A model generated the notes under the pieces. That model worked only from the letters and a program-made list of their open reading frames with translations. It ran no database searches and was not told the origin of the DNA. From assembly GCA_963792235.1 (NCBI GenBank), contig CAWBVR010000005.1, positions 70,980 through 134,979 of the forward strand: a stretch of DNA of 64,000 nucleotides, in the 5' to 3' direction. The translations under genes were made by a program, and so were the position numbers. Below, piece after piece: positions 32,798 through 33,361 of this stretch. The stretch comes from Vulcanimicrobiota bacterium. GTDB taxonomy: Bacteria > Vulcanimicrobiota > Vulcanimicrobiia > Vulcanimicrobiales > Vulcanimicrobiaceae. The stretch's first letter is position 1. The number at the start of each line of letters is the position of its first letter.

Positions 32798-33361
32798 CTA
32801 GAAGTTTTGCTTGATCGTCCACTCGCTTTCGGGATGGCTTTTCTCCAACTCGTGCCATGCTTTCAAGAGATCGCTCTGGTTGTGCGTCGCGCGGTACGCG
32901 CTCACGCCCACGAAGTACTGCGCTTCGGCGGCGACCAGCGCGGTGGGAAACCGCAGCAGCACCTCCTCGTACAACGCTTTCGCTTTGTCGTACTCTTTGC
33001 GCCGCAGGCGCGCGTGCGCGACGGCCGCGATGAGCTGCGGCGCGAACTCCGCCGGCGGCAGGTAGCCGTTCCAGCGGTAGAGCTCGGTGCCGTCCACGTC
33101 GAGCACGCGCAGATCGGGCGTCCAGGTGTGGCGGTAGCGGTCCAGCACCGGCTGGTTCGCGTCGACGGTGTTGTCGATCTGAAAGGGCACGGTGAGGCGC
33201 TCGATCGCCTCACGCACCGGGACTTCGGGATACGTCACGGTATCCAGCGCTTTGCAGCCCCCTCAACCCGGGTTGAAGACGTCCATCAGCACGAGCCGGT
33301 CGCCGTTCTGCGCCGCGCGGAGCGCCTCGTCCAGCGATCCGAGCCATGCGATCTCGCTCAT
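32798..33361 (-). CDS. Thioredoxin-fold selenoprotein (UxxC) with C-terminal TPR-like helices, 187 aa
   Basis: SD GAGGAG, ATG 33361, IAWLGSLDEAL...LVLMDVFNPG-TGA(33263-33265)-GGCKALDTVTYP...WTP...GYLPP in one frame. Confidence 0.85.
33228..33245 (-). promoter_or_regulatory. Bacterial SECIS-like hairpin
   Basis: GGAUAC-CGUGAC-GUAUCC; loop starts 23 nt after the UGA and has GU near its 5' end. Confidence 0.7.

Follow-up and report, generated by a model that had tools for sequence, protein, structure and literature searches.

For two decades, selenoproteins of the thioredoxin fold that carry a UxxC motif have been a known class. Table 1 of the 2026 inventory PMC13188914 lists "Thiol:disulfide interchange protein" selenoproteins (PF13098, UxxC), which were predicted with high confidence and are represented by WP_011366075.1, and the inventory also contains several other thioredoxin-like selenoprotein families. 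An N-terminal thioredoxin domain followed by TPRs in one cytoplasmic polypeptide, which is the domain order of the protein described here, is found in CnoX/YbbN (3qou, 3qdn). Our literature search returned no paper that links Eremiobacterota with selenocysteine (Sec) or selenoproteins, nor any reference to a Trx-TPR selenoprotein; the BSepDB paper is silent on the phylum as well as on a TPR form.

The locus analyzed in the present study lies in a 64,000-nucleotide stretch of DNA (the window, in which all coordinates below are given) from an uncultured Vulcanimicrobiota bacterium, whose genome is a metagenome-assembled genome (MAG) of 4.26 Mb in 41 contigs with a completeness of 71%. We put at roughly 0.9 the probability that positions 32798-33361 on the minus strand encode one cytoplasmic selenoprotein of 187 residues in which the UGA at codon 33 is read as Sec. 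The protein is a real member, hitherto unannotated, of the known UxxC thioredoxin-fold selenoproteins and does not represent a new mechanism.

A single reading frame with a conserved TGA

The sequence-only reading of this DNA had proposed that two ORFs share one frame and are split by one TGA, and the gene structure bears this out. In the ORF listing, the ORFs at 33263-33526(-) and 32798-33238(-) are in the same frame with only the TGA at 33265-33263 between them, and together they form a single frame of 187 codons at 32798-33361(-), which runs from an ATG at 33361-33359 to a TAG stop at 32800-32798 and whose sole in-frame stop is the TGA at codon 33. The strong Shine-Dalgarno sequence claimed to precede the ATG was located as GAGGAG at 33373-33368(-), 6 nt 5' of the start codon, and most of the 44 orthologous loci that were extracted have a GGAG-type ribosome-binding site at the same place. 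The orthologs also have the same start position, length, and single TGA. Read through, the local sequence is ...LVLMDVFNPG-U-GG-C-KALDTVTYP..., where the UGA (33263-33265, minus strand) takes the first position of a U-G-G-C redox motif and the codon at 33254-33256(-) encodes Cys36, the presumed resolving cysteine of UxxC, which does not vary within the Sec clade and reaches at least 90% conservation in alignments over the whole family. The GC content of the gene is 69%. Comparison within the genus gives dN/dS values of 0.28 (codons 2-32) and 0.15 (codons 34-187), and this purifying selection on both sides of the TGA indicates that both parts are translated in that frame. A frame-shifted control yielded a single usable pair.

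The stop codon itself is shared throughout the family. A six-frame search of 61 relatives gave 25 matches across codon 33, with identities of 49-93% and exactly one TGA each. When the search was extended to 401 Eremiobacterota genomes, which were drawn evenly over the phylum, 126 of them gave a match at the threshold of E <= 1e-15, and all the matches that extend across codon 33 carry one TGA, down to those with an identity of 33%, which belong to two other families of the phylum; a sense codon at this position, including that of Cys, was found in none of the spanning matches from these genomes. The same set includes one match with an additional TAG, one gene interrupted by a frameshift, and a few fragmentary matches where a contig ends. 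In the alignment of the extracted loci, TGA occupies the same column in 44/44 sequences, within the motif F-x-P-[GTH]-U-[GI]-G-C, and the N-terminal segment that precedes it in these loci is conserved and has an ATG or GTG of its own. A species-wide scan, for which one genome was taken from each of 185,579 species, returned 122 relatives, and in the best 80 of these 122 the position of query codon 33 is occupied by TGA throughout (80/80). The titles of these relatives are almost all Eremiobacterota, Vulcanimicrobiota, or WPS-2, with a handful bearing other submitter labels, and the nearest ones are labeled Candidatus Elarobacter. Sharing of the TGA with homologs, which had been suggested as a check of the selenoprotein proposal, is thus observed in both sets of loci. 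Because the TGA is common to orthologs from independent assemblies, a read or assembly error is excluded. Three genomes used in the searches are flagged as unpublished (G032, G048, and G059). The 44-locus alignment includes one locus from G032 (L026) and one from G059 (L042), and dropping both alters no conclusion; these two loci are also counted in the tallies for the 61 relatives, the 401 genomes, hairpin pairing, and synonymous entropy, and are absent from the broad family alignment and the Sec-clade alignment.

Two more distant relatives from metagenomes, which are annotated as truncated proteins, also have TGA at the corresponding place (FFHPR-TGA-GGC and FFSPY-TGA-PAC). Both have the same type of hairpin downstream, and one is located on a contig with a GC content of only 52%. 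Truncation is the rule in public annotation of the family. Among the at least 120 homologs listed from a collection of 5.8 billion proteins, all are 146-150 residues long or shorter fragments, cover at most 80% of the read-through protein, and are named "hypothetical" or "TPR." The search of 1.84 billion representative proteins likewise returned many entries of ~150 residues starting at query residues 39-42, and the two that were inspected are truncated Sec forms. That the listed homologs are all shortened means that gene callers stop at the UGA. The earlier expectation that standard annotation would split the gene is therefore in line with what the databases contain, since the listed public homologs are all cut short.

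The SECIS hairpin and the Sec machinery

A consensus for bacterial SECIS (bSECIS) elements is given in Fig. 2A of PMC13188914: a stem of 4-16 bp and a loop of 3-9 nt with G in one of its first two positions, usually followed by G or U, at a distance of 16-37 nt between the UGA and the loop, and with a minimum free energy (MFE) of -7.5 kcal/mol or lower. The hairpin at 33228-33245(-) agrees with this consensus. Its 5' arm GGAUAC (33245-33240) and 3' arm GUAUCC (33233-33228) form a stem of 6 bp, and the 6-nt loop CGUGAC (33239-33234) has G and then U at its second and third positions. The stem and loop are as the sequence-only reading had described them, but the distance of 23 nt from the UGA, which it had assigned to the start of the hairpin, applies to the loop, while the stem begins 17 nt after the UGA. 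The MFE is -12.8 kcal/mol for a segment of 39 nt, which includes a small, non-conserved 5' helix, and the hairpin by itself has an alignment-consensus energy of -7.7.

RNAalifold, applied to the gap-free alignment of 44 sequences, found the 6-bp hairpin as the only consensus structure. All 264 stem cells of these sequences (264/264) are standard pairs, and shifting the partner by 1-3 columns lowers the proportion to 18-54%. At pair 3, four sequences representing at least three lineages have G-C in place of A-U, and there the change of GAU (Asp) to GGU (Gly) always occurs together with the synonymous change of UAU to UAC, so that the pair is kept; at pair 5, 11 sequences have G-U. The best 80 of the 122 loci from the species-wide scan are all paired as well; they contribute a single further G-U variant, and none has a disrupted pair, which brings the number of sequences with a paired stem to 124 of 124. 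In addition, the synonymous-codon entropy at codons 40-44 is 0-0.44 bits, compared with ~0.6-2.2 bits at most other conserved codons. These codons are fixed as GAU/ACC/GUG/ACG/UAU, whereas GAC and UAC are preferred elsewhere in the gene. The overlapped region offers a clean natural example of a SECIS element shaping both codon and amino acid choice.

The folding energy of the single sequence did not differ significantly from that of shuffled sequences (z = -1.3 for 39 nt and +0.7 for 61 nt), and over 61 nt another structure has the minimum energy. As the shuffle z-score is not significant in this GC-rich sequence, it is the comparative evidence that carries the case for the hairpin. Double changes occur at one of the six stem pairs only, and the conservation of the stem could come in part from the conserved peptide D-T-V-T-Y-P, which is also present in some Cys homologs; an equivalent hairpin was not found in the closest Cys homolog. 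The RNA evidence is good, though not overwhelming when taken alone, and it derives its weight from its combination with the decoding machinery, the conserved TGA, and the Cys homologs.

The host genome contains the complete Sec machinery, the presence of which had been proposed as a check. SelA (417 bits) is encoded directly next to SelB (309 bits, above the curated cut-off) on contig C35, and neither gene has internal stops. The selD gene (369 bits) has one in-frame TGA, which, when read through, places U19 at the canonical site ...SACAG-U-ASK..., and this TGA is followed by a strongly folding double hairpin (z = -2.4). A tRNA-Sec with the anticodon UCA was detected at 74.7 bits. Since SelD contains Sec, the organism already uses decoding of UGA as Sec for at least one other gene. 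In other genes TGA serves as an ordinary stop: more long ORFs in the window end with it than with any other stop codon, and the neighboring MFS gene ends with it too. Co-occurrence of the selenoprotein gene with the machinery carries no information, since selA occurs in 33/33 high-quality relatives, with or without the gene.

Fold, homologs, and alternative explanations

The N-terminal part of the protein, residues ~1-110 (33032-33361, minus strand), is a thioredoxin-fold domain of the DsbD-gamma/Thioredoxin_2 type according to Pfam, PDB profile, Foldseek, and AlphaFold2 (AF2) results. Pfam PF13098 (Thioredoxin_2) matches residues 16-109 with 33.9 bits against a cut-off of 27, while the Pfam models Thioredoxin_7, DsbH, and TPR match below their cut-offs. 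PDB profile matches for this domain include 2kuc, 2lst, and cDsbD, and Foldseek assigned DsbD-gamma with a probability of 1.00. The proposal of a thioredoxin fold thus stands on both the profile and the structural match. In the AF2 model, which was built from an alignment of 81 sequences (pLDDT 97, pTM 0.93), the whole chain is predicted to fold as one unit, and U33 would sit between a strand (residues 23-29) and the first helix (residues 34-43), just before the latter. No N-terminus resembling a signal peptide was recognized in the protein, where residues 6-18 are part of the fold. The WTP motif pointed out earlier is present as W80-T81-P82 (33116-33124, minus strand); it directly precedes strand 83-87 in the AF2 model, shows conservation of at least 90% in all alignments, including those of Cys homologs, and is a candidate for the cis-proline loop.

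The C-terminal part, residues ~103-187 (32801-33055, minus strand), is a TPR-like helical tail with helices at residues 103-120, 124-137, 144-159, 162-175, and 180-184, which in the model would correspond to two TPR helix pairs and a capping helix. The suggestion of a TPR-like tail agrees with profile and fold matches to YbgF (2xev, E = 1.9e-11) and CpoB (6g5s, E = 2.7e-10), and Foldseek aligned 2xev with the tail over 78 columns with an rmsd of 1.1-1.2 A. For the protein as a whole, NCBIfam yielded only weak domain-level matches far below cut-off and has no dedicated model for the family.

An exhaustive, profile-free search of 1.84 billion representative proteins revealed many full-length homologs of about 187-200 residues, which match residues 1-187 at 25-43% identity and run continuously through the position of the UGA. 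Most of them have CxxC where the query has UxxC, the closest one (43% identity) having SPT-C-GG-C, and a few are without the first Cys. The UGA therefore does stand at the first Cys position of a thioredoxin motif, as had been noticed from the sequence, and the alternation of Cys and TGA that was to be sought at this column takes the form of Cys in the distant full-length homologs and TGA in Eremiobacterota. In a quick maximum-likelihood tree with SH-aLRT support and midpoint rooting, one clade (SH-aLRT 94) holds 27 of the 29 included Sec forms from Eremiobacterota, and its sister is the Cys protein with 43% identity. Four other Sec forms, of which two belong to other families of the phylum and two come from metagenomes, are scattered among Cys forms, and at least three switches between Sec and Cys are required by this tree as rooted.

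Several other explanations of the locus have to be weighed against decoding of the UGA as Sec. If translation terminated at the UGA, a peptide of 32 residues and an independent protein of 146 residues starting from the GTG at 33238 would be produced, and the existence of that GTG as well as the ~146-150-residue calls or shorter fragments that make up the at least 120 listed database homologs would fit such an arrangement. The GTG, however, lies inside the hairpin loop, and the truncated starts shift among relatives (MDTVTYP, MGAVTYP, and VSYP). Moreover, the 146-residue product would be devoid of strand 1 and the redox helix, while the full chain is modeled with the high pLDDT mentioned above; the upstream 32 codons are conserved at the protein level and have their own Shine-Dalgarno sequence and ATG; and the Cys homologs show no break at this point. 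We consider two separate products very unlikely. An explanation that is hardly more probable, and still quite improbable, is read-through of the UGA without selenium, by which a near-cognate tRNA would insert Trp or Cys, or Cys would be delivered on tRNA(Sec). The identity of the inserted residue is not distinguishable from sequence alone, which leaves this explanation some room, but it accords poorly with a full selABCD set in which selD itself contains Sec, with a hairpin located at the SECIS distance and bearing the consensus G-U in its loop, and with a UGA placed exactly on the catalytic Cys column. The long retention of UGA, never replaced by UGC or UGU in more than 120 genomes, would be hard to explain if Cys were inserted.

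Two further explanations seem to us to have a negligible chance of being correct. The gene might be a pseudogene, or the TGA might be a nonsense mutation or a sequencing or assembly error in the host genome, which is a fragmented MAG and for which indel errors elsewhere in the window were claimed by the sequence-only reading; this is effectively refuted by the occurrence of the same TGA in independent assemblies from many studies, at identities from 99% down to 33%, and the codon is flanked on either side by sequence under purifying selection. Reassignment of TGA to Trp or Gly throughout the genome, as in genetic codes 4 and 25, has nothing specific in its favor, and the use of TGA as the commonest terminator of long ORFs and at the end of the MFS gene speaks against it, as do the matches of selA and selB to their families without internal stops and the presence of exactly one TGA in the gene, on the Cys column. 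The machinery, the shared TGA, the Cys homologs, the SECIS hairpin, and the fold all point instead to a Sec-dependent oxidoreductase, which is what had been proposed and is probably what the gene encodes.

Possible function and comparison with known systems

We infer how the UGA is decoded, how the redox center works, and what the tail does as follows. SelB carrying Sec-tRNA(Sec) would be recruited by the 6-bp hairpin, and UGA 33 would be read as Sec, as expected from bacterial Sec biology. By analogy with CxxC and UxxC enzymes, Sec33 would stand where CxxC enzymes have their attacking cysteine and form a U-G-G-C redox center with Cys36. The selenolate might then attack a disulfide or sulfenate of a substrate, as in other thioredoxin-fold enzymes, after which Cys36 would resolve the mixed selenenylsulfide and a cellular reductant would re-reduce the Se-S bond. 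The TPR-like tail of two repeats, which would pack on the thioredoxin domain, most likely docks a client or partner, judging from CnoX. A function as a redox protein is thus suggested by analogy, and no characterized close relative was found.

The genomic neighborhood adds little to this picture. The downstream gene at 32191-32718(-) matches Pfam Adenine_glyco (Tag glycosylase), so the selenoprotein gene does lie directly upstream of an alkylation-repair glycosylase gene as claimed earlier, but a functional tie between the two is not supported, and the Tag glycosylase and a divergent MFS transporter are conserved neighbors only inside the genus. No neighbor common to all 44 loci was found, and distant relatives have different ones: a hemerythrin; DUF309 and a methyltransferase; or a PKS-like cluster. 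Because the neighbors are conserved only within the genus, the Tag and MFS genes give no clue to function.

A wider interpretation would be that Sec is ancestral in a Trx-TPR family of ~190 residues, and that the Eremiobacterota protein is a CnoX-like redox chaperone which is obligately Sec-dependent and whose gene is among those that keep the Sec trait in the phylum. We regard this interpretation as rather doubtful. It may be noted that a near-identical hairpin, GGRURC / NGUNNC / GUAYCC, is present in Sec forms from at least three separate parts of the tree. If Sec were ancestral, the conserved peptide D-[TA]-V-[TS]-Y-P, which some Cys forms have kept, would be a relic of the RNA element.

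The present results leave the understanding of Sec decoding and of thioredoxin-fold redox chemistry unchanged. They correct a systematic annotation error, by which the listed homologs have been called without their active site, and add a well-supported selenoprotein family to an uncultured phylum of soil and peat, where it always has Sec in the ~125 Eremiobacterota genomes that possess it.

Of the domains with known structure, those of DsbD-gamma and of the Thioredoxin_7/DsbH type (1uc7, 2fwe, 1vrs, 2kuc, and 2lst) are the best matches, over residues ~5-115, and the redox motif of DsbD-gamma is at the same structural position as that of the protein studied here. DsbD-gamma is, however, the periplasmic domain of a membrane protein and has CxxC, whereas this protein is free-standing, with Sec, a TPR tail, and no signal peptide. 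Membership in DsbD (NF001419) was rejected because the score was 32.2 bits against 330 and only the gamma region, positions 459-569 of the model, was matched. The tail shares only a small TPR module with the C-terminal TPR domain of YbgF/CpoB (2xev and 6g5s), which matches residues ~111-186. Unlike the protein described here, CpoB is associated with Tol-Pal in the periplasm and has a coiled coil at its N-terminus, and the NCBIfam model tol_pal_ybgF gave 28.3 bits against a cut-off of 90.1. With respect to CnoX/YbbN, Foldseek aligned ~195 columns with a poor whole-chain fit (TM 0.36-0.38, rmsd 11-12 A), the tail of the present protein, with its two repeats, is much shorter, and no Pfam match to the TPR families of the CnoX type was obtained. 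Membership was rejected on the grounds of the poor superposition and the lack of a sequence-family match, and the relation is one of architectural analogy only.

Among selenoproteins, VPGUxxT types 1 and 2 (NF041382 and NF041383) also have a thioredoxin-like N-terminal domain with P-G-U before the redox helix, and their models match weakly over residues 3-117 (28 bits against 275 and 14.7 against 350, respectively). Their motif is UxxT and the models have 287 and 349 positions, in contrast with NPGUGGC, which includes a resolving Cys, and the 187 residues of this protein; membership was rejected because the scores are far below the cut-offs and the motif differs. Another close counterpart is the PF13098/UxxC family in PMC13188914, which shares with the protein studied here the PF13098 domain, the UxxC motif, a single Sec, and a SECIS element directly downstream. 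That family, with which we compared ours by description only, is defined in Table 1 by domain and motif, with no TPR tail stated, whereas the present protein has ~187 residues, the fixed motif F-x-P-x-U-G-G-C, and a TPR-like tail, and was found almost exclusively in Eremiobacterota. The Eremiobacterota family falls within the loose definition of the PF13098/UxxC family by domain and motif.

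Selenocysteine genes of the host genome

The genome that holds the window carries selA and selB as neighbors on the same strand of contig C35 (5418-8417, minus strand; loci L001/L002), separated by about 66 nt, and the two genes probably constitute a selAB operon. Inside the window, the N-terminal portion of the selB model also matches two translational-GTPase-like sequences, at positions 44046-44954 (184 bits) and 41783-42016 (21 bits), both on the plus strand and both scoring below the cut-off; these are probably tuf/fus-type elongation-factor genes, not a second selB. The selD gene, which lies in the region C38:143661-144584 (L010:1404-2448, minus strand), contains a single in-frame TGA, corresponding to U19 within ...SACAG-U-ASK.... 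A double hairpin is predicted 3' of this UGA (MFE -27.5 kcal/mol, z = -2.4), whose second stem-loop starts 26 nt past the UGA and has the loop GGUCC. SelD in this genome is itself a selenoprotein.

Upstream boundary of the gene

The long apparent extension of the open reading frame 5' of ATG 33361 (window 33362-33526, minus strand) does not belong to the selenoprotein gene. It runs antisense to the first part of a divergent MFS transporter gene (33420-34934, plus strand; Pfam MFS_1, 186 bits), and its translation differs among orthologs. Next to the MFS gene, positions 34921-36099 (minus strand) encode a membrane protein whose C-terminus carries a GGDEF (diguanylate cyclase) domain (78.6 bits).

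Variation among orthologs and homologs

The ortholog looks damaged in two relatives (G044:C2:301275-301833 and G279:C1:102753-103232), where one copy is split into two frames with a break around residues 73-75, and the other has an additional TAG and a truncated match; these copies are possibly pseudogenes or assembly errors. In the alignment of full-length homologs (A2), some proteins, e.g., P0156, P0180, P0191, and P0229, have the first redox Cys replaced by E, S, or a similar residue while retaining the second Cys, which points to monothiol or non-catalytic variants. In the quick ML tree, the Sec forms L053 and L054 have two of these proteins, P0156 and P0191, as their closest relatives.

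P0122, at 43% identity the closest homolog with Cys, is encoded by a gene that shares 4 nt with the end of an O-methyltransferase gene and is surrounded by SnoaL, cupin, and ketosynthase genes (L075/L076:1-4006). These surroundings look like a polyketide-type cluster, a gene context unlike that of the Sec forms.
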